The notes: generated by a model from the sequence alone, not told the origin. 64,000 nt of DNA from Calditrichota bacterium (GCA_018263585.1 JAANWZ010000130.1:14062-78061); one strand, 5' to 3'. Shown: positions 1,180 to 32,506, counted from the first letter of the stretch. Numbers and translations are program-made.

Positions 1180-1185
1180 CGAACG

Positions 1186-3259: not shown

Positions 3260-3292
3260 CTACTGCGAAACGTACGCCGGGAGTTCAACGAT

Positions 3293-4324: not shown

Positions 4325-4328
4325 GCGA

Positions 4329-5381
4329 ATGAGCGAGATCGGCGCGTTTCTCCTCGAAAAGACAGTCGTCGGGTCGGTGATGTTCGGGGTCACACTCGGC
4401 GTGGTTGCGTACGCGACACTCGGCGAGCGCAAGCTGTCCGGGTTCTTCCAGGACCGTCACGGGCCGAACCGCGCCGGGCCGTGGGGCCTGTTCCAGCCGA
4501 TCGCGGACGGCGTCAAGTTCTTCACGAAAGAGGAGTTCATCCCGGACCGCGCGAACAAGGCGCTGTTTGTGATCGCGCCCACGTTCACATTCATGGCCGC
4601 CGGGTTCCTGATCGCGGTGATCCCGTTCGGCGATCGGATCGTGGTCAACGGGCGCGAGATCCTGCTCCAGATCGCGGATGTCAACATCGGCATCCTCTAC
4701 ATCCTCGCGATCAGTTCGCTCGGGGTTTACGGCGTGATCACCGGCGGCTGGGCGTCGAACAACAAGTATTCGCTGATGGGCGGGCTGCGCTCATCGAGCC
4801 AGATGATCTCCTACGAGATCGCGATGGGACTCGCGGTCGTCGCGCTGCTCATCGATCACGGCACCCTCTCGCTGCGACAGATCGTGCTCAACCAGACCGG
4901 GCCGATCTGGCAGTGGAGCGTGTTCACCCACCCGCTCGGGTTCATCATCTTCTACGTGTCCGCGTTCGCGGAGGCGGCGCGGATCCCGTTCGACCTGCCC
5001 GAGGCGGAAAACGAACTCGTCGGCGGCTACCACACCGAGTACTCGGCGATGAAGTTCGGCCTGTTTCAGTTCGGCGAGTACACGCACATGACGCTCGCGA
5101 GCGGGTTGATCGCGACGCTCTACTTCGGCGGCTGGTCGATCCCGTGGCTGACAGCGCCGGCGGAGCCGACGGTCTGGTGGGGACTGCTCACGTTCGCTGT
5201 GTTCTGGATCAAGACGTTCTTCTTCATGTTCGTGTTCATCTGGGTGCGCTGGACGCTGCCGCGGTTCCGCTACGACCAGCTGATGGGACTCGGCTGGAAG
5301 AAGCTGATCCCGCTCGCAGTGCTCAACATCTTGGCGATGGCGGCGATCCTGATCGCCACCGGCGGCGCGGGGATGGAATGA
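4329..5381 (+). CDS. nuoH: NADH-quinone oxidoreductase subunit H (membrane)
   Basis: 350 aa polytopic membrane protein with NuoH/ND1-like sequence. Starts 5 nt after nuoG. Confidence 0.9.
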   Translation: MSEIGAFLLEKTVVGSVMFGVTLGVVAYATLGERKLSGFFQDRHGPNRAGPWGLFQPIADGVKFFTKEEFIPDRANKALFVIAPTFTFMAAGFLIAVIPFGDRIVVNGREILLQIADVNIGILYILAISSLGVYGVITGGWASNNKYSLMGGLRSSSQMISYEIAMGLAVVALLIDHGTLSLRQIVLNQTGPIWQWSVFTHPLGFIIFYVSAFAEAARIPFDLPEAENELVGGYHTEYSAMKFGLFQFGEYTHMTLASGLIATLYFGGWSIPWLTAPAEPTVWWGLLTFAVFWIKTFFFMFVFIWVRWTLPRFRYDQLMGLGWKKLIPLAVLNILAMAAILIATGGAGME

Positions 5382-5660
5382 TTCGACCACGGATAAAACG
5401 GATGGAACGGATATATGGACCACAGAACACAGGGAATACACGGAACGATTGACTTTAATTGTCTCCTGGCAGATGTTGCTGTTCTCCCTGTTGATTTTAT
5501 CGGTTCGGATGGTTAGAGCTGAACTTCACTTTTAGATGCTCAATTAAGTAGTTGCAATTTGCAATACGTTCATCTTTTATCCGTGTTTTCCGTATCATCC
5601 GTGGTCAGAGAATTTGTTTTCAGTGTATTCCGTGGTAAGAGAGGCAGACCGAGGCAATAG
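5382..5660 (+). promoter_or_regulatory. AT-rich (~40% GC) island inside the nuo operon with terminal inverted repeats and an ACGGAT motif array; possible internal promoter or operator
   Basis: GACCACGGAT...ATCCGTGGTC inverted ends (5385-5414 vs 5579-5606). At least 8 ACGGA/TCCGT motifs in either orientation. GC content far below the flanks. Confidence 0.4.
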
Positions 5661-6173
5661 ATGGCGAACACCGAAGTAAAGAGCGACCCGTTCCGCAAGT
5701 ATGATCTCACGCTCGCGGAGCGTTTGTATATCCCGGCGATCATGAAGGGGATGGGGGTGACCCTGTCGCATTTCTTCCGCAAGCCGGTCACCGTCCAGTA
5801 CCCGGAGCAGAAGCCGGAGATCAGCCACCGCTGGCGCGGGCGGCACGTGCTCAAGCGTGACGAGTTCGGCCGTGAACGCTGCGTCGGCTGCCAGATGTGC
5901 GAGCTCGCGTGCCCGGCGGATGCGATCACGATCCAGGCGGGCGAGGTGCCACCGGAGCGACGCCATCTGCACACGACCGAACGCTACGCGGTCACTTATG
6001 AAATAGACATGCTGCGCTGCATCTATTGCGGAATGTGCGAGGAGGCGTGCCCGGAGGCGGCAATCTTCCTCACACCGTTCTACGAGTTCGCCGAAGACAG
6101 CCGCGAGAAGCTGATTTACTCGAAAGAGATGCTGACCGAGAAGGTCGGCGGGCCGATATTCTACAAGGACTGA
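5661..6173 (+). CDS. nuoI: NADH-quinone oxidoreductase subunit I (2x 4Fe-4S ferredoxin)
   Basis: Two CxxCxxCxxxCP motifs (CVGCQMCELACP, CIYCGMCEEACP). GAGG RBS upstream. Confidence 0.9.
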   Translation: MANTEVKSDPFRKYDLTLAERLYIPAIMKGMGVTLSHFFRKPVTVQYPEQKPEISHRWRGRHVLKRDEFGRERCVGCQMCELACPADAITIQAGEVPPERRHLHTTERYAVTYEIDMLRCIYCGMCEEACPEAAIFLTPFYEFAEDSREKLIYSKEMLTEKVGGPIFYKD

Positions 6174-6182
6174 ACGCGCCGC

Positions 6183-6200
6183 GTGTCATCCTGAACAAGC
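6183..6200. repeat. Solo terminus of a MITE-like element (GTGTCATCCTGAACAAGC)
   Basis: 18-bp match to the left end of variant copy E. Lies in the nuoI-nuoJ spacer. Confidence 0.5.
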
Positions 6201-6228
6201 CGGCGATAGCGCACAACCTGAGACGGTT

Positions 6229-6747
6229 ATGGACTCACAGACAATCGTGTTCGCGATCCTCGCGCTGATCTCGCTGTTCGGCGGGATCATGGTCGTGACG
6301 CGACGCAACCCGGTGCACAGCATCCTGTTCCTCGTGCTCACGTTCTTCTGTTTCGCGGGGTTCTATGTGATGCTCGGTGCGACCTTCCTCGCCGCGATCC
6401 AGGTGCTCGTCTATGCCGGCGCGATCATGGTCCTGTTCCTGTTTGTCGTGATGATGCTCAACCTGCGCGAGCCGGAGGCGCTGGAAGGCGGCCCGTCGTT
6501 CTTCCAGACGCTCGGGTTCATCGTCGCGGCGGGGATGGCGGTGCTGCTGCTCGCGTACTTCGCCGGGCGGCCGGGACCGGGCGTGCCGCCGTTTTCCGCG
6601 GGCGAGACGGCCTACGAGGTCGGCGGCCCGGAGAGCCTGGGCATGCTGCTGTTCACCGAGTACGTGTTCCCGGTCGAGATCGCGGGCATTCTCCTGCTCG
6701 CCGCGGTGATCGGCGCGGTCGCGCTGGCGAAACGGAAACGGGTGTGA
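6229..6747 (+). CDS. nuoJ: NADH-quinone oxidoreductase subunit J
   Basis: 172 aa hydrophobic protein in nuoI-nuoK position. Confidence 0.85.
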   Translation: MDSQTIVFAILALISLFGGIMVVTRRNPVHSILFLVLTFFCFAGFYVMLGATFLAAIQVLVYAGAIMVLFLFVVMMLNLREPEALEGGPSFFQTLGFIVAAGMAVLLLAYFAGRPGPGVPPFSAGETAYEVGGPESLGMLLFTEYVFPVEIAGILLLAAVIGAVALAKRKRV

Positions 6748-7061
6748 TCATGGAAACGACCGTCGGCCTCAACCATTACCTGATCCTTGCTGCGCTGTTG
6801 TTCTGCATCGGAATCGCCGGCGTGCTCACGCGCCGCAACCTGCTGATCATCTTCATGTCCGTCGAGCTGATGCTCAACTCGGCGAACCTGACCCTGATCG
6901 CGTTCAGCCACTACCTGGTGAACGCGGTCGGGATGGTATTCGTCTTTTTCACGATGACTGTCGCGGCGGCGGAGGTCGGTGTCGGGCTCGCGATCGTGGT
7001 TACGATCTTCCGCAACATCGAGTCGCTCGACATCCGGAAGCTGAACGTGCTCAAGCACTGA
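6744..7061 (+). CDS. nuoK: NADH-quinone oxidoreductase subunit K
   Basis: ~100 aa three-helix membrane protein (LNHYLILAALLFCIG...). GTGA overlap with the nuoJ stop. An alternative ATG start lies at 6750. Confidence 0.85.
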   Translation: MIMETTVGLNHYLILAALLFCIGIAGVLTRRNLLIIFMSVELMLNSANLTLIAFSHYLVNAVGMVFVFFTMTVAAAEVGVGLAIVVTIFRNIESLDIRKLNVLKH

Positions 7062-7065
7062 TCCG

Positions 7066-7107
7066 GCTGGCGGCTGGCGGCCGGCGGCTGGCGACCGACG
7101 GCTGACG
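7066..7107. repeat. Degenerate heptamer tandem repeat (GCTGGCG)n, about 6 units
   Basis: gctggcg gctggcg gccggcg gctggcg accgacg gctgacg, between nuoK and nuoL. Confidence 0.7.
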
Positions 7108-7132
7108 ACTGAATCAGGACAGGGAGGAACCG

Positions 7133-9133
<2,001 letters not shown>

Positions 9134-9167
9134 TGCCGGTTCATATCCAGTATGCGCGTTCCACTGT

Positions 9168-9309
9168 GTCATTCTGACGCCCGAAGGGCGGAAGAAGGTC
9201 CGAGTACGAAACCGGTGGTTACTGTCTGGATCACCCTTGCTGGAACTGGACCTTCCCTTCACTGCGTTCAGGATGAACTTCACGCCGCTGAGGCGGCGTT
9301 CAGAATGAC
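9168..9309. repeat. MITE/REP-like composite palindromic element, copy A
   Basis: Termini GTCATTCTGAC...GTTCAGAATGAC. Internal GAAGAAGGTCC / GGACCTTCCCTTCACTGCGTTCAGGA inverted pair. Confidence 0.8.
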
Positions 9310-9375
9310 GAAACGCCAACTGGATCGGAACTGGCAACAGTGGACCGGATCACATGAAACGACAGGTGACCGACC

Positions 9376-9529
9376 GTCATCCTGAAGCCGCGGGCGGCGT
9401 CAGTCTGCCCCACGCGACTGAAGGAGGTCCGAGTACGACGTCGGAGAGGCATGCATTTACAACCGTTTGTCTACCTGGACCTTCTTCACTACGCCCGATA
9501 AACTGAAATCGGGCTGCGTTCAGAATGAC
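9376..9529. repeat. MITE/REP-like element, copy B (tandem with A)
   Basis: GTCATCCTGAAGCC...GCGTTCAGAATGAC. Internal AAGGAGGTCC / GGACCTTCTTCACT. Confidence 0.8.
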
Positions 9530-9582
9530 GCAGAATCAGCTCTCGTTCCATGTGGTTTGTTCCGTTCATCAGGGAGACCACA

Positions 9583-11061
9583 ATGTCCTGGTGGTTAACC
9601 GCCATCGTGTTCATCCCGACCATCGGCGTGCTCGTGCTCCTGTTCGCGCCGCCGGCGCGGGAGAAGTTCATCCGCTGGTGGTCGTTCGCGGTGATGACGG
9701 TCGGCTTTCTTGTCTCGCTGCCGTTGTTCTGGTTGTTCGACGCGAGCACGGCGGCGTTTCAATTCATCGACAAGGCGCCGTGGATCCGTTCGCTCGGGAT
9801 CGACTACCACCTCGGCGTGGACGGGATCAGCCTGCTGCTCGTGCTGCTCACAACCTTCCTCGGCCCGATCGTCGTGCTCGGCAGCGGCAGCGTGACCAGG
9901 CACCTCAAGGGATACTTCATCAGCCTGCTCATCCTGCAGACCGGGATGCTCGGCGCGTTTGTCGCGCTCGACCTGTTCCTCTTCTACGTATTCTGGGAAG
10001 TGATGCTGATCCCGATGTACTTCATCATCGGGATCTGGGGCGGAGTCGCGCGCATCTACGCCGCGGTCAAGTTCTTCATCTACACGATGATCGGCTCATT
10101 GTTGATGCTGATCGGGATTCTCTGGATCTACTTCAACACGACCGTGCCGGGGATCGGCCACACGTTCGACTACACGCTGCTGGTGCAGCACGCGAACTTC
10201 CCGGTACAGGCGCAGATGTGGCTGTTCGCCGCGTTCGCGCTCGCGTTCGCGATCAAGGTGCCGATGTTCCCGTTCCATACGTGGCTCCCGGACGCGCACG
10301 TCGAGGCGCCGACCGCTGGCTCGGTGATCCTCGCCGGCGTGCTGCTGAAACTCGGCACGTACGGGTTCATCCGGTTCGCGATGCCGCTGTTCCCCGATGC
10401 GGTCGTCAGCTTCCGCCCGCTGATGCTCGCGCTCGCGGTGATCGGGATCATCTACGGCGCGATCGTCTCGATCGCGCAGAAGGACATGAAGAAACTGGTC
10501 GCGTACAGCTCGGTGAGCCACCTCGGGTTCGTGATGCTCGGGCTGTTCGCGCTCAACACGCAAGCGGTGTCCGGCGCGCTGATCCAGATGGTCAACCACG
10601 GGCTCTCGACCGGCGCCTTGTTCCTGCTCGTCGGCGTCGTCTACGACCGGCGGCACACGCGCCTGATCGCCGATTACGGCGGCATCGCCCGGTTCATGCC
10701 GTGGTATGCGGTCGTGTTCACAGCGGTCGCGTTATCGAGCATCGGCCTGCCCGGGCTGAACGGGTTCATCGGCGAATTCCTCGTGCTCGTCGGGACCTAC
10801 CAGGCGCACCCGGTGTGGGCGATCTTCGCCGCGACCGGCGTGATCCTCGCCGCGATCTACCTGCTCTGGATGATCCGGCGCGTCTTCTTCGGCGAGTTGA
10901 CGCACGATGAGAACAAGTCGCTGACCGACCTGAACGCGCGCGAGTGGGCGTCGCTGCTGCCGCTGCTCGTGTTCATCGTCTGGATCGGCGTGCATCCGAA
11001 CACGTTCCTGTCCAAGTTCACCGTCTCGATCCAGCATTTCCTGGCGCAGACGGTTCAGTAG
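9583..11061 (+). CDS. nuoM: NADH-quinone oxidoreductase subunit M (antiporter-like)
   Basis: ND4-family sequence. Start chosen at MSWWLTAIVF with an AGGGAG RBS 6 nt upstream. The ORF track's 9550 start runs into a repeat element. Confidence 0.85.
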   Translation: MSWWLTAIVFIPTIGVLVLLFAPPAREKFIRWWSFAVMTVGFLVSLPLFWLFDASTAAFQFIDKAPWIRSLGIDYHLGVDGISLLLVLLTTFLGPIVVLGSGSVTRHLKGYFISLLILQTGMLGAFVALDLFLFYVFWEVMLIPMYFIIGIWGGVARIYAAVKFFIYTMIGSLLMLIGILWIYFNTTVPGIGHTFDYTLLVQHANFPVQAQMWLFAAFALAFAIKVPMFPFHTWLPDAHVEAPTAGSVILAGVLLKLGTYGFIRFAMPLFPDAVVSFRPLMLALAVIGIIYGAIVSIAQKDMKKLVAYSSVSHLGFVMLGLFALNTQAVSGALIQMVNHGLSTGALFLLVGVVYDRRHTRLIADYGGIARFMPWYAVVFTAVALSSIGLPGLNGFIGEFLVLVGTYQAHPVWAIFAATGVILAAIYLLWMIRRVFFGELTHDENKSLTDLNAREWASLLPLLVFIVWIGVHPNTFLSKFTVSIQHFLAQTVQ

Positions 11062-11095
11062 TGGTTCGATTCGACTACTATGGGCGTAATTGATC

Positions 11096-11248
11096 GTCAT
11101 TCTGAAGCCGTGGCCGGTGTCCGTATACCGCCAACGGCTGAAGAAGGTCCAGATGCTGTACAGGTCAGCTATTCATAGAGACCGTCGGCGAACCGGGACC
11201 TTCTTCACTTCGTCCAGCAAACTAACGCTGGTCTTCGTTCAGAATGAC
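11096..11248. repeat. MITE/REP-like element, copy C
   Basis: GTCATTCTGAAGCC...CGTTCAGAATGAC. GAAGAAGGTCCA / GGACCTTCTTCACT. Confidence 0.8.
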
Positions 11249-11305
11249 GAATCATCTCCCGCCAGACCGTGTGGATTCGCCCATTAGGCCCTGAGGAGCC
11301 GACTC

Positions 11306-12778
11306 ATGTTCGACAGTCTGATCGCTGATATGCATGTGAGCCGCCTGATCCCGGAGATATTCGTGATCGGGCTCGCGCTCGTCGCCATCCTCGTCGATGT
11401 GGTCCTCCCGCGCGGCCGGAGCACTCGCGGCGTGCAGATCACCGTGCTGATCGGCCTGTTCGCCGTGATCGCCGCCACCGTGCTCGGCAAGGAAAACACC
11501 GGCGAAGCGTTCGGCGGGATGGTGGTCGTGGACGGGTTCACCTTCTTCTTCCGGCTCCTGCTTGCGATCATCACGTTCCTCGTCGTGCTCGTGAGTGAAC
11601 ATTACATCGAGCGGCTCAACATCCGGATCGCGGAATACTACCTGCTGTTGCTGTTCAGCCTGTTCGGGATGCTGCTGATGGCGATGGCGCAGGATCTGCT
11701 CATCGTGTTTCTCGGGATCGAGACGATGTCTGTGTCGCTGTACGCGCTCGTCGGACTCTCGCGGCAGAAGCACACGTCGAACGAGGGCGCGATCAAGTAC
11801 TTCCTGCTCGGCGCGTTCACGACCGCGATTTTCGTCTATGGGATCGCACTCATGTTCGGCGTCGTCGGCTCGACGAACATCAACGACATCGTGACCTTCC
11901 TCAGCGGACTCGGCGACTCGATGCCGCTGCTCGCGTGGGCGGGCGCCGGGTTGATCCTGATCGGGTTCGGGTTCAAAGCGGCGCTTGTCCCGTTCCACTG
12001 GTGGAGCCCGGACGCGTACGAGGGCGCGCCGACCACGATCACCGCGTTCATGTCCACCGCGCCGAAAGCCGCAGCGTTCGCCGCGTTTCTCCGTGTCTTC
12101 TACATCGCGTTCGGCGAGATGTGGGGTGAGTGGACGGTCGTGCTCTGGTGGATCGCGGTGCTCACGATGACGTTCGGCAACCTGCTCGCGCTCCGCCAGG
12201 ACAGCGTGAAACGAATGCTTGCGTTCTCGAGCATCACGCACGCCGGTTATCTCGTGATCGCGCTGCTCACGTTCGACCGGATCGGGGCGGCGGCGATGCT
12301 CTTCTACCTCGTCGTCTATGCGCTGATGAACCTCGGTGCGTTCCTCATCGCGATCGCGGTCAACCGTGACGAAAGCGAGGAGAAGGGCTACTGGTTCGAC
12401 GACTACAAGGGGCTGGTGTTCCGCAAACCCGCGCTCGCGCTCGCGATGCTCGTGTTCATGCTCGCGCTCGCGGGGATTCCGCCGACCGCCGGCTTCTTCG
12501 GGAAATACTACATATTCGCCTCGGCCGTGAACGCCGGCTTCGTCGGGCTCGCGGTGATCGGCGTGCTCAACAGCGCGGTGAGCGTGTACTACTACCTGCG
12601 GCTCGTCGTTTACATGTTCCTCCGCGACCGCGAGGCGCGCGAGCGCGAGGGGCCGCTTTGGATCACGGACGAGATCACGAACGTCGTCTTCCTCTGCCTC
12701 GTGCTCGTCCTGCTCGTCGGCCTGTTCCCGGACGCGCTGCTCACGTTCGCGACGAACTCGGTGAAGATGCTGCTCTGA
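11306..12778 (+). CDS. nuoN: NADH-quinone oxidoreductase subunit N (antiporter-like)
   Basis: 490 aa ND2-family membrane protein. GAGGAG RBS. Confidence 0.88.
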   Translation: MFDSLIADMHVSRLIPEIFVIGLALVAILVDVVLPRGRSTRGVQITVLIGLFAVIAATVLGKENTGEAFGGMVVVDGFTFFFRLLLAIITFLVVLVSEHYIERLNIRIAEYYLLLLFSLFGMLLMAMAQDLLIVFLGIETMSVSLYALVGLSRQKHTSNEGAIKYFLLGAFTTAIFVYGIALMFGVVGSTNINDIVTFLSGLGDSMPLLAWAGAGLILIGFGFKAALVPFHWWSPDAYEGAPTTITAFMSTAPKAAAFAAFLRVFYIAFGEMWGEWTVVLWWIAVLTMTFGNLLALRQDSVKRMLAFSSITHAGYLVIALLTFDRIGAAAMLFYLVVYALMNLGAFLIAIAVNRDESEEKGYWFDDYKGLVFRKPALALAMLVFMLALAGIPPTAGFFGKYYIFASAVNAGFVGLAVIGVLNSAVSVYYYLRLVVYMFLRDREAREREGPLWITDEITNVVFLCLVLVLLVGLFPDALLTFATNSVKMLL

Positions 12779-23074: not shown

Positions 23075-23327
23075 GCCGGGGACTCCGTGGGCCGGATTGT
23101 ACGATGTTTCACGAATATAGGGAGTTGCAGGCGTTTCCGCCAACGAGCGCACGAGCGAGCGAAAACTGTGGGAACCCGGGACACGCGCGGAGAGAACGCC
23201 CCCCGCAACTACGGTCACCGGCGTAATTCGGCTCCTGCTTGCGGGGGGCGGAGGTCGCGCGGCGTTGCGCCGCATACCTGGACCAAGTGTAGCGATCCGC
23301 ACCGATCGCTGTCAAGCGGAGAACGGC

Positions 23328-24494
23328 CTACGCCCGGTACACCTTCCCTTTCCAGATCACCGGCCAGTTGAACACGAGCGCGACGAGCAGCAGGTGGTTC
23401 ATCGCGATCTGCACCGGGAAATGGAGCGCGAGGTCGCGCGCCGGGATCGGATCCTCGAGGATCTCGTCCGCCTGCCGGATCAACGAGACCTCCGCCGCGA
23501 CCACGATCGCGAACGCCGCGAGCCCGGTGAGCGGAAACAGCAGCACCGACCACGGAATCGCGATCCGCATCAGGAACACGACCGCGTAGAGGAACGAGTT
23601 CGTCGCGTTGAACGTCTTCGTCGCCGACGCCCACCGCCGTGTCTGCCGCCAGAACTCGCGGAAGCTGCGGGAGGGGCGGGTTGTCACGACCGCCTCCGGG
23701 TCGATCAGCACCGCGATCCGCTTGTCCGTCTCGCGGATCATCCGGTTCACGAGCGCGACGTCCTCGATCAACGTCGGCCCGACCGTGCGGAACCCGCCGA
23801 TCTCCCGGTAGGTGGACATCCGCAGCCCCTGGTTGTTGCCCATGTTGAACGAGGGGCGCAGGTGTTTGAGCAGCAACCGGAACGGGCGCAGCCTCGGGTG
23901 ATACTGATCCGCCGGCAGTTGCAGCGTTGAATAGCCCGCGGAGAGGGCGAGGAACAACCGGTTGAGCACGTGCTGCATCCGCGCGAGGAACGAGTTCGGC
24001 CGGTGCGGATCCTCGACAGACACCTGGCTGTTCACGACCGCAACGTCCTCGTGGAACCCGGCCATCATCCGTTCGATCCACGTCTCCGGGACCGTGCAGT
24101 CGGCGTCGGTGAGCAGGACGAATTCCGTGTCAACGTGCCGCAGTGCAGTATCCAGCGCCTGCACCTTGCCGCGCAGCTCGCCGTCCTCTTCCCGAATGTG
24201 GATCACCCGCGCCGGCACGCGCGCATCGGCGGCGAACAATTCCATCAGCTCGCCGGTGCGGTCCTTCGACAGGTGATTGACGAGCAGCAGCGAATAGAGC
24301 TCGCGCGGGTAGGTCTGGTCGGACAGCGAAAACAGGCACTCCATGAGCACATCTTCTTCGTCGCGCGCGCAGACGACGACGGTGACCGGTTCGCGCCGCG
24401 ACGTCTTCGGCCACTGTTGCCGGCAGCCGTAGAGCGCGATCCAGGCGGCGACGGAGACGACGAGTGCGAGCAGGAGTGGCAGCAGCAACGGCAT
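23328..24494 (-). CDS. Family-2 glycosyltransferase (membrane, processive-type QxxRW)
   Basis: N-terminal TM. VVVCARDEE...DADC (DxD). QTRRW. C-terminal TM helices. Confidence 0.75.
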   Translation of the reverse strand: MPLLLPLLLALVVSVAAWIALYGCRQQWPKTSRREPVTVVVCARDEEDVLMECLFSLSDQTYPRELYSLLLVNHLSKDRTGELMELFAADARVPARVIHIREEDGELRGKVQALDTALRHVDTEFVLLTDADCTVPETWIERMMAGFHEDVAVVNSQVSVEDPHRPNSFLARMQHVLNRLFLALSAGYSTLQLPADQYHPRLRPFRLLLKHLRPSFNMGNNQGLRMSTYREIGGFRTVGPTLIEDVALVNRMIRETDKRIAVLIDPEAVVTTRPSRSFREFWRQTRRWASATKTFNATNSFLYAVVFLMRIAIPWSVLLFPLTGLAAFAIVVAAEVSLIRQADEILEDPIPARDLALHFPVQIAMNHLLLVALVFNWPVIWKGKVYRA

Positions 24495-24497
24495 GGG

Positions 24498-25232
24498 TCA
24501 CCAGTCCGGAAGAAACCGTGTGATGTCGGTGAACGTGACGCCGGCCCGTTTCAACGCAGGCAGCGTGCGGTCGAGTGCACCGGCGACCGCGCCGGCGCTT
24601 TCGCCCCCGTCATGTAAGAGCACGATGTCTCCCGGGTAAACATACCGGTAGAGCAGCCGGGAGAGGGAGGAGGGGGAGACCCCGGGCGCCCAGTCGCGCA
24701 TCGAGAGCCTCCAGTGCACGATCCGGCCGCCGAGTTCGCGCGCGGTCGCGATCGCGGCGAAATCGAGCCGGCCGTACGGCGCGCGCAGCAGCAGGCGCCC
24801 GTCTCCGACCGCGAACGGGTTCGGTTGCGCGCGGAGAACCATCAGCGGGTCGATTTCCACTCGCCGGTGCGCGTGCGAGCGGAACCACCACGCGCTGTGC
24901 GTGAGCCCGTGGTACCCGATCCGGTGTCCGGCGTCGAGCACGCGGTCGATCACATCCTCCCCGCCCGGGATCCGTTGCCCGCGGAGGAAGAACGTCGCCG
25001 GGATTTCATGCTTCGCGAGCACGTCGAGAATGCGCAGCGTGCCGTCCCCGGCCGGGCCGTCGTCGAACGTGAGATGCACCGGGCTGTCGGCCGCCGGGGC
25101 GGGGATTCCCCACACGACCCGCGGGAACAGCCGTTCGAGCAGCGGGTGGGTGCGGAGCACAGGCCCGCCGAGCTCGGCGAACGCGGCGAGCTCCGCCCGC
25201 CGTGACCACAGGCTCGCGCGAGAAACGGTCAT
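24498..25232 (-). CDS. Polysaccharide deacetylase (NodB homology domain)
   Basis: HLTFDDGP and HGLTH motifs. ATGA overlap with the upstream GT stop. 3-nt gap to the downstream GT. Confidence 0.75.
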   Translation of the reverse strand: MTVSRASLWSRRAELAAFAELGGPVLRTHPLLERLFPRVVWGIPAPAADSPVHLTFDDGPAGDGTLRILDVLAKHEIPATFFLRGQRIPGGEDVIDRVLDAGHRIGYHGLTHSAWWFRSHAHRRVEIDPLMVLRAQPNPFAVGDGRLLLRAPYGRLDFAAIATARELGGRIVHWRLSMRDWAPGVSPSSLSRLLYRYVYPGDIVLLHDGGESAGAVAGALDRTLPALKRAGVTFTDITRFLPDW

Positions 25233-26425
25233 GCCGCGATCCCGGAGGATCGGCGACCGGCCCGCTGCGCGGCGCTGCGCCCGGCGAGCGTCTGGCTCTT
25301 CCACTTGAACTTGAAGAACTGGCCGCGGAACCCGGCGTAGAAGATCGCCGGAGCGTGCAGGATCTGCGTGAGCAGGAACTTTACCGGCGGGTACCGCTCC
25401 TGGAACCGGCGCATCCCGTCGCGCATGATCACCGACTCGGTGCCGATCTTCGAGAGCGCGAGCAGCACCGGCAACGACGGCGCAGCCCGTCCGACCAGCG
25501 CGAGCGGCAGCGAGAGCGCGATCATCAGGTAGTAGAGGAACGTGCCGACGACGAGGAACATCAGGAACGGCGGGTAGTAGAAGCCCTTCGAGCTCCAGCG
25601 CGCGCGCTGGTTCACCCACTGGTTGAGCGTGTCCACGGGCTGGCTGAACACGTACGCCTCCGGCCGTTCGACGAAACGCACGGCCCCGCCGCGCGCGGCG
25701 ATGTCCTGGAGCAGGAACACGTCGTCGCCGGACGTGATCCGGTCGTTGCTCGCGTACCCGCCGATCCGTTCGTACGCGCTGCGCCGGGCGGCGAGGTTCG
25801 ACCCGTGCGCGTTCGTCACATGGCCCGCCGCGATCGAGCCCGCAGCCATCACCGAATATGACAGGTGCTCGAGGCTCTCGAGCTCGCTCCACCACGGCCG
25901 TTTCGCCCCGTCCGCGCGGATGAACCGGCTCACTCCGGTCACACCCTGCACTTCCGGATCGGTGAACGGCGAGAGCAGCGCGCGCAGCCAGCGCGGGCCC
26001 ATCCAGCAGTCGGCGTCGGTGGTCACGATCACCTCGCCGGTCGCGAGCGCGATCCCCCGCGAGAGCGCGTACTTCTTCGGCGCGCGACTCTCGCTCGCCC
26101 CGTCGCGGATGCGGACAACCCGGTAGCGCACCCCCGACCGCGCCCGCCCGCGCACGAGCTCGCCGGTCCGGTCGCGGCTGCGGTCATCGACGACGATCAC
26201 CTCGAACTTGTCGCGCGGGTAATCCTGCGCCTCCAAGCCGTCGAGCAGGCGGCCGATCCGGGTTTCTTCATCACGAGCCGCGATCACGATCGAAGCGAAC
26301 GGGAGTTCGCCGTCGTCCTCGACGATCCGCGTGCGCGGGAGGCGGCGCAGGCCGACATAGACGATCACCATGAACGCGGAATAGACGAGCCACGCGCACC
26401 ACGTGATCATATAGTAGGCCGTCAT
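25229..26425 (-). CDS. Family-2 glycosyltransferase (membrane, QxxRW)
   Basis: IVIAARDEE...TDADC...QRARW. ATGA overlap with the upstream flippase-like gene. The long N-terminal ORF extension is out of frame with that gene and was rejected. Confidence 0.75.
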   Translation of the reverse strand: MTAYYMITWCAWLVYSAFMVIVYVGLRRLPRTRIVEDDGELPFASIVIAARDEETRIGRLLDGLEAQDYPRDKFEVIVVDDRSRDRTGELVRGRARSGVRYRVVRIRDGASESRAPKKYALSRGIALATGEVIVTTDADCWMGPRWLRALLSPFTDPEVQGVTGVSRFIRADGAKRPWWSELESLEHLSYSVMAAGSIAAGHVTNAHGSNLAARRSAYERIGGYASNDRITSGDDVFLLQDIAARGGAVRFVERPEAYVFSQPVDTLNQWVNQRARWSSKGFYYPPFLMFLVVGTFLYYLMIALSLPLALVGRAAPSLPVLLALSKIGTESVIMRDGMRRFQERYPPVKFLLTQILHAPAIFYAGFRGQFFKFKWKSQTLAGRSAAQRAGRRSSGIAA

Positions 26426-27507
26426 CCCGCCCTCCTCCGCATCCGGCGGGTGATCCGGCCGAACACGTTCGTCGCCTTCACCTTCTGCAACACGAAGAAC
26501 CCGGCGATCGCCGGCAGCAGGATGTTGATCGTGAAGATGAGCAGCGAGGCGGTGAACGCGGTCGTGTCCGCGATCTCGAACCGGTGGTAGATGGAAACCG
26601 TCGCCCACTCGCTCACGCCGAGGTCGCCGAGCGATATCGGGAGCAGCGTTTTCACGAACAGCGACGCGGTGTACGTGTGCGCCGCGGTGAGCCAGTTCAC
26701 AGCCTGAAATGCGTTGCTCAGCAGGTGGAACTGGGTGAGGACAACGACGAACTGGCCGGCGGTGATCGCGGCCATCCGCCGGCTGTCGCGGGGCTCGACC
26801 CGGTCGAGCGCGTGCAGCAGGTCGGCGGCACTCCCTTTCAGCGGCAGCCGCTTCTGCAGCCACGCGAGCAGTCGCCGGAGCGGTACGGGAGTGAGCGCGT
26901 ACGAGAAGTAGAGAACCGGGAGCGCGCTCGTCGCGATGAGCAGCGAAACCCGCAGGCCGGGGGAGAGGTAGTCGCTGAACCCGGGCGTGTGATACACGAG
27001 CGCCGGGCCGAAAAAGACGAGCACGCCCATGAAATACGCCTTGTCGAGCACGTGCAGCCCGGCGAGCCGCACGCGCGACGGCGGCTGGAGCAGGAACACG
27101 CGCCCGATCTCGCCGACCCGGCCCGGAGTGATCAGGCCGAGCGACATCCCGCCGAGGAAGCTCGCGAACACCTTGGAAAACGGGACGCCGGGCATTTCGC
27201 CCCGGAGCGCGCACCACCAGCGCCGCCCCTGCAGCCACAGGTTGACCGGCATGAGCGCGAACGCCGCGAGCATGAACCAGCCGTTCGCGCCCGCGACCGC
27301 TTCTTCGAGCGCCGCGATCCGGATCGTGCGCACGAGCAGCCACAGCAGCGTGACCGCCACCGCCGCCTTGATGAGGTGTACGAGCCACACCTTCCACGGC
27401 CGCGGGCGGACTGTTCCGCTGTCCACGCGCGGGATCTCACCGGCCGCGGCTGCGGCGCGCGATTCGGCGGGCGCCGCGCTCTCGATTCGCTGGCCGTCAG
27501 GATTCAT
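26422..27507 (-). CDS. Flippase-like polytopic membrane protein (LPG_synthase_TM / UPF0104 family)
   Basis: 361 aa, ~8 TM helices. Resembles the N-terminal domain of MprF/HpnL-type proteins. Its stop overlaps the next GT start. Confidence 0.6.
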   Translation of the reverse strand: MNPDGQRIESAAPAESRAAAAAGEIPRVDSGTVRPRPWKVWLVHLIKAAVAVTLLWLLVRTIRIAALEEAVAGANGWFMLAAFALMPVNLWLQGRRWWCALRGEMPGVPFSKVFASFLGGMSLGLITPGRVGEIGRVFLLQPPSRVRLAGLHVLDKAYFMGVLVFFGPALVYHTPGFSDYLSPGLRVSLLIATSALPVLYFSYALTPVPLRRLLAWLQKRLPLKGSAADLLHALDRVEPRDSRRMAAITAGQFVVVLTQFHLLSNAFQAVNWLTAAHTYTASLFVKTLLPISLGDLGVSEWATVSIYHRFEIADTTAFTASLLIFTINILLPAIAGFFVLQKVKATNVFGRITRRMRRRAG

Positions 27508-28651
27508 CCGCCGCCGGTTCCGGTTCGATCGTTTGCGCGCGCCGTATCGTGCGCCCCTTCCAGCTCAGCTTCCCGAACAGCGCCTTCGGCCAGATGATCC
27601 ACCCCCAGAACGGGGCGAGCGACATCGTCACGAGCGCCTGCAGCGCGCGCTTCGGGTCGCGCAGCACACGCAGCCCGGCGGCCGCGAGCATGACGTCGCA
27701 GCCGGTCTTGAACAACCACGCGCCCCGCACCGCTGAAGCCGGCAGCAGCCGCACCACAGAAAGCAGCGTCGCGAGTCCGAGCCCGAGATAGAGCGCGCTC
27801 CCGATCAGCCCGATCAACACCCAGCCGGGCGCGTAGCGCGGGCCGACGCTCATGTGCCGAGCCTTGATCCCGACGGGGTCGTCGTGTTCGCGGAGCATTG
27901 CATGCACGACCGACTCCTTCGACGCCGCGAACTCGACCTTCCAGTCCGTGCGCGCGGCGACCCGTTGCAGGAACAGGTCGTCGTCGCCGGAGGCGTACCG
28001 GCCGTCCGAGCCGAACCCGCCCATGTCGAGATAGAGCCTGCGCCGAGCGGCGAAGTTTCGGCCGAACGCGTTGAACGGAAACCCGAGCCCGACTGCGGCC
28101 GCGCTCAACGTCGCGGACGAATACGACTCCCCCTCCGCGAGCCACTGGAGCGGGTTGTTCGGGCCGGTGAGCGGAGCGTAGCCGAGCACGATCCCGGCGC
28201 GGTCGCTCATGTACGCCGCGAGCGCGCGGATCCACTGCGGGCCGGGCACGCAGTCCGCATCGGTGAACACGACCCATTCCCCGCTGCAGCGACGGATCGC
28301 GGTGTAGAGCGCGCGTTTCTTCGGTGACTTGATCGGCAGCGTCGGGTTCGCGGAGATCACATGAAAGCGCCGGTCCCTGCGCGCCGCGTCGAGCGCGAGC
28401 GAAAGCGTGTTGTCCTCGGAGTGGTCGTCCACGATCCAGAAATCGATCTTCTCGCGCGGGTAATTCTGTGCGGAGAGCGCGGCCATCAGCCCGGGCAGGT
28501 AGGTCTCCTCGTTGCGGGCGGCGACGATCACCGAGACCTTCGGCAGCGACGGATCATCGGCCGGCAACGGGTCGCGCCTGTTCACGCGCAGCAGGCCGAG
28601 CGTCGCGAGCCCGGTGAGCGCGCCGTACACGGCTTTGTATCCGTTCAGCAA
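27497..28651 (-). CDS. Family-2 glycosyltransferase (membrane)
   Basis: VSVIVAARNEE...TDADC motifs. Start placed at TTG 28651, which has a GGGAG RBS 8 nt upstream. A longer ORF reaching 28855 would run through the 26-bp palindrome. Confidence 0.65.
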   Translation of the reverse strand: MLNGYKAVYGALTGLATLGLLRVNRRDPLPADDPSLPKVSVIVAARNEETYLPGLMAALSAQNYPREKIDFWIVDDHSEDNTLSLALDAARRDRRFHVISANPTLPIKSPKKRALYTAIRRCSGEWVVFTDADCVPGPQWIRALAAYMSDRAGIVLGYAPLTGPNNPLQWLAEGESYSSATLSAAAVGLGFPFNAFGRNFAARRRLYLDMGGFGSDGRYASGDDDLFLQRVAARTDWKVEFAASKESVVHAMLREHDDPVGIKARHMSVGPRYAPGWVLIGLIGSALYLGLGLATLLSVVRLLPASAVRGAWLFKTGCDVMLAAAGLRVLRDPKRALQALVTMSLAPFWGWIIWPKALFGKLSWKGRTIRRAQTIEPEPAADES

Positions 28652-28976
28652 CGTGCGTTCTCCCTGATTCGGGGACAGTCCGGGCGTCCGTGACCGCTCC
28701 GCCGGAGTCCCCCCGCGGTCGATCCAACATCGCAATATAGGGCGTGGCCCGGAGCGAAAACAGGTTTCCCCGTTCGCTCCCGCGGGCGCGCTGGTCCCTT
28801 TGCGCGCCGGGGCCTCCGGGGACGCTTGCTTGCAAGCGTCCCCTGCCTCTGCCACGTCTCCTTTGCGCGAGCGGGACCGGCGAATGTATGCTCTACACCG
28901 TTGTTCGTGAACGCTGCCCGTGGGAACGCCCGCTCCGGCGTTCCGTCTCTTTCACCGCAACCACCGGCGAGCGACG
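28652..28976. promoter_or_regulatory. Divergent promoter region between the GT-deacetylase-flippase operon (-) and the ABC exporter pair (+), containing the 26-bp palindrome
   Basis: 325-bp spacer between divergent start codons. Perfect palindrome at 28818-28843. Confidence 0.4.
28818..28843. repeat. 26-bp perfect palindrome GGGGACGCTTGC-TT-GCAAGCGTCCCC
   Basis: Seen directly. Lies in the divergent GT-operon / ABC-exporter intergenic region. Confidence 0.85.
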
Positions 28977-30725
28977 ATGGCCGAATTCATCCGCAGAGTG
29001 CTCTACTACTACCGCCCGTACCGGGGGGCGGTGATCGCCGGACTCGTGTTCGTCGTACTCGCGAACGTGTTCAAGTCATTGAGCCCGTGGGTGCTGCGGC
29101 TCGCTGTCAACAGCATCGAGAGCGGGCTCGAGCGCGCCGAGCTCTGGCACTGGGCCGGGCTGATCGTCGGCGTCGCCGCACTCGCCGGCCTGTTCACGCT
29201 GCTGATGCGGAAGAAGGTGATCAGCGTAAGCCGGCACATCGAATATGACATCCGCCAGCGGCTGCTGAGGCACCTGCTCGCGCTCGACCCGTCATTCTAC
29301 GACCGCTCGCGGATCGGCGACCTGATGACCCGGTCCACGCTCGACATCGAGCAGGTGCGGATGGTGATCGGCCCCGCGCTGATGTACACCGTGAACACGA
29401 TCTTCGGTTTCCTGTTCGCGATGGTGCTGATGTTCACGATCTCCGTGCCGCTCACGCTGATCGTGATCCTGATCGGACCGATCGTCGCCGGGCTCGTGTT
29501 CCTCGTCGGGCGCAGGGTGCATCGCGCGTCCACCGAGAGCCAGGAGGCGTTCTCCGACCTGAGCGCGTTCGTGCAGGAGAACGTGAGCGGGATCCGGGTC
29601 GTGAAGGCGTTTCTCCAGCACGAGCACCAGCAGCGAGAGTTCGCCGGCCGGAGCGGCACACTGCTGAAGAAGAAGATGAAGCTCGTGCTGTTCCAGGGCA
29701 CGTTCATGCCGCTGATCATGCTCCTGTTCGGGACCGCGGTGTCGGCGATCATGCTCGTCGGCGGTTACTACATCATCGAGGGCACACTCCGCGTCGGCGA
29801 CTACGTCGCGTTCACCGGCTACCTGATGATGCTCACGTGGCCGATGGTGTCGATCGGCTGGGTTGTCAGCCTCGCGCAGCGGGGGCGGGCGTCGCTCGAA
29901 CGCATCAACGACCTGCTCGACCGCGGGCCGGGGCTGCCGGACCCGGACCCGCCCTCCGACCCGCCGCCGCGCGGGAACGGAACCGTGCGCTTCGACAGCG
30001 TCACATTCACCTACCCGCAGGCGACCGCGCCCGCGCTGAACAGCGTCAGCTTCGAGCTCAAGCCGGGCGCGACGCTCGGCATCGTCGGCCGCGTCGGCTC
30101 CGGCAAGAGCACGATCGCCTCGCTGATCACGCGCATGTACGACGTCAGCAACGGCCGGCTCCGGTTCGACGGCGTCGATGTGCGCGCCTGGAGCCTCGCC
30201 GGGCTGCGCGGGCGGATCGCGGTTGTGCCGCAGGATCCGCTCCTGTTCAGCACGTCGATTCGCGACAACATCAGGCTCGGAGGAGAGTTCAGCGAGGATG
30301 AAGTCGCGCGCGCGGTCGAGATCAGCCGGCTCGTGCAGGACATCGACAGTTTCCCGGACGGCCTCGACACGGAAGTCGGCGAGCGCGGAATCACGCTCTC
30401 CGGCGGCCAGAAGCAGCGGGTTGCGATCGCGCGCGCGGTGATCCGAGACAGCGAGCTGATCCTGTTCGACGACGCGCTCAGCGCGGTCGATGCGAGCACC
30501 GAGGAGAAGATCCTCGACAACCTGAATCGCCACCTGGAAGACCGGACCGCGATCATCATCACCCACCGCACGACGAGCGTGCACGAGGCCGACGAGATCC
30601 TGGTGATCGACGACGGCGCGATCGTCGAGTGCGGCCGTCACGGCGAGCTGATCAAGCGCGGGGGCGTGTACGCCGACCTGTTCCGCCGGCAGAAGATGGC
30701 GCGCGAGCTCGAGGAGGCGGCATGA
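28977..30725 (+). CDS. ABC exporter, fused permease/ATPase (MsbA-like), subunit 1
   Basis: 6-TM domain plus Walker A GRVGSGKST, LSGGQKQR signature, and Walker B ILFDDALSAVD. Confidence 0.85.
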   Translation: MAEFIRRVLYYYRPYRGAVIAGLVFVVLANVFKSLSPWVLRLAVNSIESGLERAELWHWAGLIVGVAALAGLFTLLMRKKVISVSRHIEYDIRQRLLRHLLALDPSFYDRSRIGDLMTRSTLDIEQVRMVIGPALMYTVNTIFGFLFAMVLMFTISVPLTLIVILIGPIVAGLVFLVGRRVHRASTESQEAFSDLSAFVQENVSGIRVVKAFLQHEHQQREFAGRSGTLLKKKMKLVLFQGTFMPLIMLLFGTAVSAIMLVGGYYIIEGTLRVGDYVAFTGYLMMLTWPMVSIGWVVSLAQRGRASLERINDLLDRGPGLPDPDPPSDPPPRGNGTVRFDSVTFTYPQATAPALNSVSFELKPGATLGIVGRVGSGKSTIASLITRMYDVSNGRLRFDGVDVRAWSLAGLRGRIAVVPQDPLLFSTSIRDNIRLGGEFSEDEVARAVEISRLVQDIDSFPDGLDTEVGERGITLSGGQKQRVAIARAVIRDSELILFDDALSAVDASTEEKILDNLNRHLEDRTAIIITHRTTSVHEADEILVIDDGAIVECGRHGELIKRGGVYADLFRRQKMARELEEAA

Positions 30726-32506
30726 GCGAGCGCACGCGCAAGTCGATCCACGAAGAGGAGAGCCTCGGTGTCGTGTTCGAACCGCGGCTCGTGAAGCGTC
30801 TGCTCTCCTACCTGCGACCGTACCGCGGCAAGGTCGTGATCGCGGTGGTCCTGCTGCTCGCGGTCGCCGGGCTCGAGCAACTCGGACCGTACCTGACGAA
30901 AGTCGCGCTCGACGACTACATCAAGCCCGGCGATTTCCAGGGCCTGATCGGGGTCGTGCTGCTCTACCTCGGGCTGTACGTGCTGCTCTCGCTGGTGCGC
31001 GTCGGTCAGGCGGTGCTCACCGGCTGGGTCGGCGAACACGTGATGTACGACATCCGCCGCGAAGTGTTCGCCCACTTCCAGCGCCACACGCTCAGCTTCT
31101 TCGACCGCAACCCCGTTGGCAGGCTGGTCACGCGCAACACGAACGACGTGCAGACGCTGAGCGAGATCTTCTCCTCCGGAATCGTCGTCGTGTTCGGCGA
31201 CCTGTTCATGCTGATCGGGATCATCGTCGCGATGGTGCTGCTCAACTGGAAACTGGCGCTGGTCGCGATCGCGGTCGTGCCGCTCGTCGTGTTCGCGACG
31301 TTCTTCTTCCGCGGCCGCCTGCGCGACGCGTTCCGTTCGGTCCGCATTGAAACGGCCGGCGTCAATTCGTTCCTCCAGGAGCACCTTTCCGGCGTTCGAA
31401 TCGTGCAGCTGTTCAACCACGAATCGCACACCGACCGGGCGTTTTCACATGTCAACGGCCGTCTCCGCGGCGCCCACCTGCGCACGGTCAGCCTGTTCAG
31501 CGTGTTCTTCCCCGTGCTCGAGCTGCTGAGCGCGTCCGCGGTCGCGCTCATCATCTTCCGCGGCGGCGGGCTCAGCGTCGACGGCGCGATCACGATCGGG
31601 ACGCTCGTCGCGTTCCTCCAGTACGCCGAGCGCTTCTTCCGCCCGATTCGCGACCTCGCCGAGAAGTGGAACATCTTCCAGGCGGGGATGGCGTCCGCGG
31701 AGCGCGTGTTCAAGGTGCTCGACACGAAGCCGGAGATCAGCGACCCCGTTCGCCCGAAGCAGCCCGGCGAACGCAGGGGGAAGATCGAGTTCGATCATGT
31801 CCGGTTCGGCTACGGCGACGAGGAGGACGTGCTCAAGGACGTGCATTTCACGATCGAGCCGGGCGAGACCGCGGCGATCGTCGGCGTCACCGGCGCGGGC
31901 AAGACGACGATGATCAACCTGATCGGCCGTTTCTATGACGTGCGCTCCGGGGCGATCCGGATCGACGGCGTTGATGTCCGCGAACTCAGGCGCGAAGATC
32001 TGCTCCGCGAGCTCGCGTACGTGAGCCAGGACATCTTCCTGTTCAGCGGCACGATCCGCGACAACATCGCGCTCGGGGACGAGTTCACGGACGAGCAGAT
32101 CCGGCGTGCGGCGAAGATGGTGCACGCCGACACGTTCATCGAGCGCCTGCCGCGCGGATACGATGAGGAAGTCACGGAACGCGGCGGCACGCTCTCGACC
32201 GGCCAGCGCCAGCTCCTCTCGTTCGCCCGCGCGATGGTCCGCGACCCGAAGCTGCTCGTGCTCGACGAGGCGACCAGCTCCGTTGACCCGGAAACGGAGG
32301 CGCACATTCAGGACGCGACCGCCGTGCTGATGCGCGGGCGAACATCGATCATCGTCGCCCACCGGCTGAGCACCGTGCAGCGCGCGAACCGGATCCTCGT
32401 GATGCACAAGGGGAAGCTGTGCGAGATGGGTACACACCGCGAGCTGCTGCGCAAGCGCGGCATCTACTGGCGGCTGTTCGAGCTCCAGTACCGGCGCGTC
32501 GCCTGA
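30722..32506 (+). CDS. ABC exporter, fused permease/ATPase, subunit 2 (heterodimer partner)
   Basis: ATGA overlap with subunit 1. GVTGAGKTT, LSTGQRQL, LVLDEATSSVD. Confidence 0.85.
   Translation: MSERTRKSIHEEESLGVVFEPRLVKRLLSYLRPYRGKVVIAVVLLLAVAGLEQLGPYLTKVALDDYIKPGDFQGLIGVVLLYLGLYVLLSLVRVGQAVLTGWVGEHVMYDIRREVFAHFQRHTLSFFDRNPVGRLVTRNTNDVQTLSEIFSSGIVVVFGDLFMLIGIIVAMVLLNWKLALVAIAVVPLVVFATFFFRGRLRDAFRSVRIETAGVNSFLQEHLSGVRIVQLFNHESHTDRAFSHVNGRLRGAHLRTVSLFSVFFPVLELLSASAVALIIFRGGGLSVDGAITIGTLVAFLQYAERFFRPIRDLAEKWNIFQAGMASAERVFKVLDTKPEISDPVRPKQPGERRGKIEFDHVRFGYGDEEDVLKDVHFTIEPGETAAIVGVTGAGKTTMINLIGRFYDVRSGAIRIDGVDVRELRREDLLRELAYVSQDIFLFSGTIRDNIALGDEFTDEQIRRAAKMVHADTFIERLPRGYDEEVTERGGTLSTGQRQLLSFARAMVRDPKLLVLDEATSSVDPETEAHIQDATAVLMRGRTSIIVAHRLSTVQRANRILVMHKGKLCEMGTHRELLRKRGIYWRLFELQYRRVA

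Follow-up and report, generated by a model that had tools for sequence, protein, structure and literature searches.

The window analysed here is a stretch of 64,000 nucleotides from a metagenome-assembled genome (MAG) labelled Calditrichota bacterium (GCA_018263585.1, JAANWZ010000130.1:14062-78061), and its subject is a block of five minus-strand genes at positions 23328-28651 that is read, with moderate confidence, as an operon for an aminosugar-containing membrane lipid. The block is 5.3 kb long and encodes an integral-membrane glycosyltransferase (GT_A), a flippase-like protein (FLP), a second glycosyltransferase (GT_B), a deacetylase (DAC) and a third glycosyltransferase (GT_C). All five open reading frames (ORFs) were present in the window sequence at the coordinates first given for them (Table 1). 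The GT_A/FLP junction is an 11-nt overlap (ATGAATCCTGA), the FLP/GT_B and GT_B/DAC junctions are 4-nt overlaps of the form ATGA, and DAC and GT_C are separated by a 3-nt gap (TGAcccATG); these were read directly from the sequence and agree with the gene chain described in an earlier note on this DNA. Independent gene calls from Logan contigs of the same species gave the same boundaries for four complete genes. The upstream end at 28855 that the note had set for the region was not upheld: this is only the longest-ORF start, and the alignments of the GT_A orthologues begin at the TTG codon at 28651, as the note's own gene list had assumed.

With these overlaps and this gap, and with the same coupling at the orthologous loci, the five genes are best read as one operon. 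A near-consensus sigma-70-like promoter match (TTGACA-18-TACACT, window 23286-23315, minus strand; a consensus match only) lies 13 nt past the GT_C stop and ahead of a proline dehydrogenase gene, and its position between the two suggests that the operon ends at GT_C. The intergenic region upstream of GT_A matched no Rfam family, and Rfam and tRNA scans of the whole window were also without matches, which leaves the operon without an associated riboswitch or other RNA element.

Table 1. Coordinates of the five-gene block and of other features in the window.
Feature	Position	Strand	Description
GT_A	27497..28651	-	TTG start, AGGGAG 7 nt upstream; 384 aa integral-membrane GT2, subtype A
FLP	26422..27507	-	361 aa; stand-alone MprF-like flippase-domain protein (UPF0104 / PF03706), about 8 predicted transmembrane helices
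GT_B	25229..26425	-	398 aa integral-membrane GT2/GT21-like, subtype B
DAC	24498..25232	-	244 aa CE4 (NodB-type) deacetylase
GT_C	23328..24494	-	388 aa integral-membrane GT2/GT21-like, subtype C
Intergenic region between GT_A and the divergent transporter pair	28652..28919	.	presumed operon promoter region; same divergent layout in 12/12 full-cluster loci
Pair of MsbA-like half-transporter ATP-binding cassette (ABC) exporters	28920..32506	+	divergent from operon; likely starts near 28977 and 30722
uppS	50061-50852		Pfam scan of window
TamB-like protein	51544-55818		1424 aa; Pfam scan of window
BamA with POTRA repeats	55877-58267		Pfam scan of window
LpxD	58454-59812		Pfam scan of window
LpxC-FabZ fusion	59823-61223		Pfam scan of window
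LpxA	61220-62020		Pfam scan of window
nuo operon (NADH:quinone oxidoreductase)	58-12778		49-kDa, 51-kDa, G-like, H, L, M and N subunits recognised; ordinary housekeeping

The Pfam profiles bore out the GT2, UPF0104 and NodB-type assignments made earlier. GT_A matched PF00535 (83 bits), GT_B both PF00535 (84 bits) and PF13506 (58 bits), and GT_C both PF13641 (72 bits) and PF13506 (53 bits), and all three also matched Glyco_transf_21, the ceramide glucosyltransferase family. FLP matched PF03706 with 85 bits (cut-off 33) over profile positions 2-302 of 302, and DAC matched PF01522 with 73 bits (cut-off 23). Also the paralogy claimed for the glycosyltransferases was recovered, with 34% identity between GT_A and GT_B and 27-28% between GT_C and each of the other two. 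No NCBIfam equivalog cut-off was reached by any protein of the cluster, the scores on the MftF, HpnB, HpnI, CruG, NodC, PgaC, ArnC and NodB models all being far below, which agrees with the note that the cluster is no exact match to HpnI/HpnK/HpnL, NodC/NodB or PgaC/PgaB. Among the best sub-threshold matches of the glycosyltransferases were the lipid-acting HpnI, HpnB and CruG.

Each glycosyltransferase consists of an N-terminal transmembrane helix, a GT-A domain and a C-terminal bundle of about three transmembrane helices, altogether about four, and the GT-A domain of each is predicted to lie on the cytoplasmic side. The note had given all three a DxD and a Q(R)xRW motif; this held for GT_B (QRARW) and GT_C (QTRRW), and GT_A has IKARH instead. 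Measured by the definition of cellulose-synthase-like GT2 enzymes (D, DxD, D, QxxRW and flanking transmembrane segments), GT_B and GT_C conform fully and GT_A has xxRH for xxRW. The other motifs of GT_A are VDDHSED (D1), TDADC (DxD) and SGDDD (D3). In 13 orthologues, 99 of its 384 positions do not vary, among them the K, R and H of KxRH. Motif comparison showed the xxRH variant to be common to the A-type enzymes at the KSB1, Gemmatimonadota, Calditrichota and Latescibacterota loci.

GT_B, with VVDDRS, TDADC and SGDD as its further motifs, shows the strongest conservation in the cluster, with 149 of 398 positions unchanged in 13 orthologues, and it adjoins the deacetylase gene in both phyla that have one. 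Its best sequence match in the PDB was PcManGT (6yv7, 2e-16). The wider GT_B family comprised 1683 representatives at E<=1e-30 and included tandem fusions, of which P0194 (674 aa) has two GT2 domains and P0324 (2213 aa) has five; these are natural single-polypeptide versions of the stacked arrangement of glycosyltransferases.

GT_C differs in its D1 and D3 motifs, VNHLSKD (with NH at D1) and IED. Only 16 orthologues of it were found among 5.8 billion proteins, all confined to the lineage of the window and one KSB1 relative. Its best NCBIfam matches were HpnB (70 bits) and HpnI (64 bits), both far under the cut-off, and the best PDB match of its predicted model (pLDDT 94) was PcManGT (TMt 0.70), followed by hyaluronan synthase (HAS) and BcsA.

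Three subtypes can be told apart by motif across the phyla: A with SGDD and xxRH, B with SGDD and QxxRW, and C with ED and QxxRW. For the distant glycosyltransferases, scores on hidden Markov models (HMMs) alone were moderately decisive in the assignment, with margins of 10-80 bits, and the motif signatures were clearer. The subtypes are anciently diverged, and since their distinct D3 and acceptor motifs are conserved and common to several phyla, they argue for three different single-step specificities rather than for redundancy.

DAC carries all five CE4 motifs (TFDDGP, HGLTH, RAPYG, (R)DW and LLHD), and none of them varies among 13 orthologues. Its best PDB match was the peptidoglycan N-acetylglucosamine (GlcNAc) deacetylase 5o6y, its best NCBIfam match NodB (99 bits against a cut-off of 240), and about 23 orthologues were found in the same protein search. 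Neither a transmembrane segment, a signal peptide nor a hydrophobic N-terminus was seen in any DAC orthologue, those of Calditrichota included, and DAC is thus predicted to be cytoplasmic. All DAC orthologues, again with those of Calditrichota, share a clade-specific N-terminal element, (L/F)FPxhxW(G/Q), about 15 residues ahead of TFDDGP and outside the Pfam CE4 domain, which could serve in docking to the membrane or to a partner.

When the AlphaFold model of FLP (pLDDT 87) was compared with the PDB, nothing but five MprF structures matched it significantly (probability 1.00, TMq 0.54-0.58, 14-19% identity), and the protein is thus modelled with the fold of the MprF flippase domain; the C-terminal aminoacyl-phosphatidylglycerol synthase domain of MprF is absent from it. 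About 17 orthologues were detected among the proteins searched; with the counts for DAC and GT_C, this marks the family as rare. A single-sequence pattern scan gave no relatives of FLP in genome contigs, and an alignment-based rescan did. Distant homologues of FLP occur as fusions (L027:2498-4783, L035:2725-5007, L028:7950-10799, L051:4421-6346 and L059:7935-9722): with PMT_2, a GT-C glycosyltransferase, in Dictyoglomota, with both PMT_2 and a CE4 deacetylase in one MAG (L028, 949 aa), and with an S-adenosylmethionine (SAM)-dependent methyltransferase in Planctomycetota. Short ArnC-like GT2 genes (about 315 aa; 186-203 bits on the ArnC model) adjoin the fusions with GT-C enzymes. The partners suggest that UPF0104 proteins may act generally with enzymes that modify lipid head groups.

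The complete block was found in about 12 species-level genomes, all of them MAGs of one uncultivated lineage of the Fibrobacterota-Chlorobiota-Bacteroidota (FCB) group, with protein identities of 37-80% to the window and with the genes overlapping alike. Cluster-bearing genomes include OY769902.1, CAXXKJ010000002.1 and OZ245730.1. In the conserved order, holA, ABC2 and ABC1 point away from the operon, and GT_A, FLP, GT_B, DAC and GT_C are followed by proline dehydrogenase. A translationally coupled trio of FLP, a GT_B-like gene and DAC was present at six Calditrichota loci, where the flanks are unrelated (PorV-like/glyoxalase, radical SAM, RNase H). At a KSB1 locus (L025:5973-16073) the order is GT(A), methyltransferase, FLP, GT(B), Wzi-like, GT(A), GT(B) and GT(C); this cluster thus has five GT2 genes, a SAM-methyltransferase in the place of the deacetylase and a gene for a Wzi-like capsule-assembly outer-membrane protein in its middle. 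The Gemmatimonadota loci have either GT(A) beside FLP or GT(A) and GT(B) with FLP farther off. Recurrence of this kind outside the lineage of the window is stronger evidence than synteny inside it. The arrangement goes beyond chance, since order and tight coupling are kept in about 12 species with considerably diverged proteins and the core recurs in other phyla with different flanks.

The genes are thus co-localised in related genomes, as the earlier note had anticipated, and not scattered. Its description of the system as lineage-specific fits the five-gene form, which is confined to one lineage; the module and the three glycosyltransferase subtypes occur more widely, in several FCB-group phyla. 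A 4-nt overlap joins a radical SAM/SPASM-domain gene (L016:7075-7980) to the start of FLP in a single Calditrichota MAG, and the other Calditrichota loci are without this gene.

One more distant relative was Candidatus Electryonea clarkiae, a member of the phylum Ca. Electryoneota (= AABM5-125-24) of the FCB superphylum (PMC9324843); the cluster goes unmentioned in the paper describing that phylum (PMC9324843). In the NCBI record, the exact FLP and GT_C of the window appear as hypothetical proteins under the label 'Calditrichaeota bacterium MAG453'. Bona fide Calditrichota MAGs have the three-gene core only, at about 32-35% identity, and the full cluster is shared with MAGs including Ca. Electryonea clarkiae. 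The source MAG may therefore carry an outdated phylum label.

The two exporter genes divergent from the operon scored 417 and 486 bits on the MsbA_lipidA model (cut-off 602) and are apparently coupled, the likely ATG at 30722 overlapping the stop at 30725 (ATGA). In the lineage of the window the pair and holA stay beside the cluster; at one Gemmatimonadota locus (L031) and one Zixibacteria locus (L032), too, GT_A/FLP have an ABC gene and holA nearby, in a different order. The pair was not found beside the Calditrichota trio. It is a possible partner for onward export, and the proximity of the ABC and holA genes may reflect either functional linkage or old synteny. Farther off, the row of uppS, TamB-like, bamA, lpxD, lpxC-fabZ and lpxA genes at window 50061-62020 marks the organism as a lipid A-producing diderm. 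Fusions of LpxC and FabZ are typical of Bacteroidota-type lineages. The downstream proline dehydrogenase, RidA and DUF5683 genes were rejected as functional partners, because about 250 nt with the promoter-like site separate them from the block and because they are absent beside the module in other phyla.

Its closest characterised counterparts are two recently described operons, both studied by experiment and neither mentioned in the note. In Clostridioides difficile, HexS adds N-acetylhexosamine (HexNAc) to monohexosyl-diradylglycerol (PMC10128005, PMC11898633), the polysaccharide deacetylase HexD gives an aminohexosyl glycolipid and HexF is an MprF-like flippase domain (PMC10128005). The product is aminohexosyl-hexosyl-diradylglycerol, formed via the HexNAc intermediate, and loss of HexSDF lowers daptomycin and bacitracin resistance (PMC10128005, PMC11898633). 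In Pseudomonas aeruginosa, the GT4 enzyme GpgS makes GlcNAc-phosphatidylglycerol (GlcNAc-PG), a cytoplasmic COG3233 deacetylase converts it to glucosamine-phosphatidylglycerol (GlcN-PG), and GpgF is a predicted flippase of the UPF0104/YbhN type; gpgSDF suffices in Escherichia coli (PMC12713373). The present cluster likewise combines putatively lipid-directed glycosyltransferases, a deacetylase and a stand-alone UPF0104 protein in one operon.

The reading favoured here, moderately probable as a whole, takes the cluster as a synthase-flippase-synthase-deacetylase-synthase operon making a glucosamine (GlcN)-containing oligoglycosyl membrane lipid, that is, as an enlarged synthase-deacetylase-flippase module. 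It builds on what the computational analysis showed: the operon structure, the domain families, the intact motifs, where DAC is located, the MprF fold of FLP, and the reappearance of the module in other phyla. According to the proposed mechanism, the three membrane GT2 enzymes would work at the cytoplasmic face, each in turn adding one sugar onto a membrane lipid acceptor, most simply a diacylglycerol-type lipid or a phospholipid. One of the sugars would be a HexNAc, probably GlcNAc from UDP-GlcNAc, and GT_B, as the constant companion of the deacetylase, is the likeliest enzyme for this step. DAC would strip the acetyl group in the cytoplasm and leave a free amine (GlcN), and FLP would move the glycolipid, whether complete or not yet complete, to the periplasmic leaflet, where the amine would reduce the net negative surface charge, as with lysyl-phosphatidylglycerol, GlcN-PG and the aminohexosyl glycolipid of C. 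difficile. The suggestion of an aminosugar glycolipid product, made already in the earlier note, gains strength from the HexSDF (PMC10128005) and GpgSDF (PMC12713373) precedents; the product itself we infer, as we do the acceptor lipid, the identities of the sugars, the order of the steps, the flipping, the physiological role and any part played by the ABC heterodimer.

Several points weigh against the glycolipid reading. In the lineage of the window the housekeeping flanks are equally syntenic, and conservation there is by itself no evidence of functional linkage. The likeness to HexSDF and GpgSDF is one of logic and not of orthology, since the synthases here are GT2 enzymes and those of GpgSDF and HexSDF are GT4 and MGDG (monogalactosyldiacylglycerol)-synthase-like, respectively. 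For UPF0104 proteins, HexF and GpgF among them, flipping is still a predicted activity (PMC10128005, PMC12713373). The fold class of the glycosyltransferases, as judged from the GT_C model, includes true polymer synthases (HAS and BcsA at ranks 3-13), and the Wzi-like gene within the KSB1 cluster hints at a surface glycan.

The last two points also favour the strongest alternative, a soluble or secreted GlcNAc/GlcN oligo- or polysaccharide resembling the Nod-factor backbone, chitosan or poly-N-acetylglucosamine, which would be made by one or more processive GT2 enzymes, deacetylated in the cytoplasm and exported by the ABC pair, by FLP or by both. Such a product is considered unlikely. The cluster shares with NodC/NodB and PgaC/PgaB the combination of a QxxRW-type membrane GT2 of cellulose-synthase-like fold, with HAS and BcsA as high-probability structural matches, and a CE4 deacetylase; NodB is moreover cytoplasmic like DAC and is its best NCBIfam match, and the conserved divergent exporter pair and the Wzi-like gene in the related KSB1 cluster fit export of a glycan. 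The scores are nevertheless far under the cut-offs: DAC against NodB (TIGR04243) as given above, and the three glycosyltransferases with 46, 26 and 34 bits against 550 for NodC (TIGR04242) and 31, 59 and 46 bits against 422 for PgaC/IcaA (TIGR03937). The cluster contains no NodA-like acyltransferase, no PgaA/PgaB-like porin or periplasmic deacetylase, no PilZ domain and no BcsB-like partner; PgaB is periplasmic, whereas DAC shows no sign of export. Each glycosyltransferase has only about four transmembrane helices and the best structural match is to the non-channel PcManGT. NodC and PgaC are single processive synthases, and three non-identical, conserved subtypes would suit stepwise assembly better than polymerisation. 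Also the MprF-type lipid flippase fold of the partner protein and the absence of the ABC pair beside the Calditrichota core speak against a polysaccharide.

A glycolipid with an isoprenoid acceptor (a hopanoid, a carotenoid or similar), made in analogy to HpnI/HpnK/HpnL or CruG, is quite improbable. The route to bacteriohopanetetrol glucosamine resembles the proposed pathway in its GT2/GT21-like transfer of GlcNAc to a lipid, in the following N-deacetylation and in the PF03706 protein of the locus, HpnL being of the same family as FLP, and the sub-threshold matches to HpnB, HpnI and CruG point the same way. These matches are, however, far from the cut-offs, the three glycosyltransferases scoring 21, 46 and 64 bits against 310 for HpnI, 54, 62 and 70 against 379 for HpnB, and 50, 57 and 27 against 600 for CruG. 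HpnK is of the YdjC type, whereas DAC is a CE4 enzyme. Neither a squalene-hopene cyclase (shc), an hpnJ-like gene nor a carotenoid gene was seen among about 45 ORFs scanned in the window or in the flanks of the 12 orthologous loci; for the window, shc and hpnJ had been reported absent already in the note.

Least probable of the alternatives, and very improbable, is a route of the Arn/Lgm/Flm kind, in which a GT2 enzyme would load HexNAc on undecaprenyl phosphate, the CE4 enzyme deacetylate it, FLP flip it and a GT-C enzyme encoded elsewhere transfer it to lipid A or another periplasmic acceptor. The organism does have lipid A genes in the window (LpxD, LpxC-FabZ, LpxA), ArnD is a CE4-family enzyme, and the FLP fusions with GT-C enzymes, in L028 also with CE4, and with their ArnC-like GT2 neighbours indicate that a UPF0104-based Arn-like route does exist in nature. 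The GT2 enzymes of those loci are, however, of another kind: they are shorter and reach 186-203 bits on the ArnC model (PRK10714), against 16-25 bits for the glycosyltransferases of the window, which carry the QxxRW/xxRH motif and a cellulose-synthase-like C-terminal bundle. No gene of the PMT_2/GT-C type was seen in the scanned ORFs of the window or in the 12 orthologous neighbourhoods, and three glycosyltransferases would be superfluous for a single-sugar donor. The idea of a glycolipid substituting for lipopolysaccharide (LPS) was rejected in view of the LpxD, LpxC-FabZ, LpxA, BamA and TamB-like genes in the same window.

A more far-reaching version of the glycolipid reading would make the product a new class of envelope lipid: a tri-glycosyl aminoglycolipid, built by a fixed A/B/C assembly line of GT2 enzymes that is modular across several uncultivated FCB-group phyla (the lineage of the window, Calditrichota, KSB1 and Gemmatimonadota). 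In these LPS-containing diderms the UPF0104 protein would flip the lipid and the conserved, MsbA-like ABC heterodimer next door would perhaps hand it on to the outer membrane, and xxRH would stand for a new acceptor-recognition class of membrane GT2. This version is put forward only tentatively and is regarded as doubtful.

The genetic basis of charge-reducing aminosugar lipids has been described only recently and in two pathogens, for HexSDF in 2023 and for GpgSDF in 2025, and such lipids affect resistance to daptomycin, bacitracin and cationic antimicrobials (PMC10128005, PMC12713373). The present cluster overturns no current concept. It points to an independent assembly of this synthase-deacetylase-flippase logic from another glycosyltransferase family, and to its extension towards a head group of several sugars in uncultivated, environmental FCB-group phyla. 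The three sequence-defined GT2 subtypes are ones to which donor and acceptor specificities could be assigned. Since the enzymes encoded beside UPF0104 proteins, or joined to them in fusions, include GT2, GT-C, CE4 and methyltransferase types, further comparative support is also given to the still unproven idea that they are general flippases of head-group-modified lipids.

Compared with MprF, FLP shares the flippase-domain fold and PF03706; its partners are glycosyltransferases and not a tRNA-dependent aminoacyl transferase, and having no synthase domain it falls outside the definition of MprF. PcManGT of Pyrobaculum calidifontis resembles the glycosyltransferases in its similar size and small four-helix transmembrane bundle, and is a minimal cellulose-synthase-like enzyme without a long secretion channel. 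It has only about 20% identity to them, is archaeal and annotated as a mannosyltransferase, and is uninformative on donor and acceptor here.

HexSDF is likewise an operon with a lipid glycosyltransferase, a 'polysaccharide deacetylase' and a stand-alone MprF-like flippase domain, in which addition of HexNAc is followed by N-deacetylation. Several glycosyltransferases are needed overall also in C. difficile, where UgtA makes the monohexosyl lipid that HexS extends. The two differ in the synthase, annotated as MGDG-synthase-like in HexS and GT2 here, and in the number of glycosyltransferases in the operon, one as against three. HexD has been modelled as extracellular, whereas DAC is without an export signal, and the host of HexSDF is a monoderm Firmicute, that of the present cluster an LPS-containing FCB diderm. 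The two-component regulator HexRK lies next to HexSDF, and none lies beside the cluster of the window.

In GpgSDF, too, a synthase, a cytoplasmic deacetylase and a UPF0104/YbhN-type protein are encoded in one operon, here of a Gram-negative bacterium. It yields an aminosugar lipid that is zwitterionic or cationic, with deacetylation inferred to precede flipping. GpgS is, however, a soluble GT4 enzyme (cd03814), and GpgD is of the COG3233 type and not PF01522. GpgS adds a single sugar to phosphatidylglycerol, whereas the three membrane GT2 enzymes, assigned to GT2/GT21 by Pfam, would imply a head group of several sugars. Lipid-directed GlcNAc-type transfer, N-deacetylation and an MprF-like flippase are already known from these systems. 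New are the three conserved membrane GT2 subtypes, one of them with an xxRH acceptor motif, the oligoglycosyl aminosugar head group that they imply, and the distribution of such a module in uncultivated, LPS-containing phyla of the FCB group.

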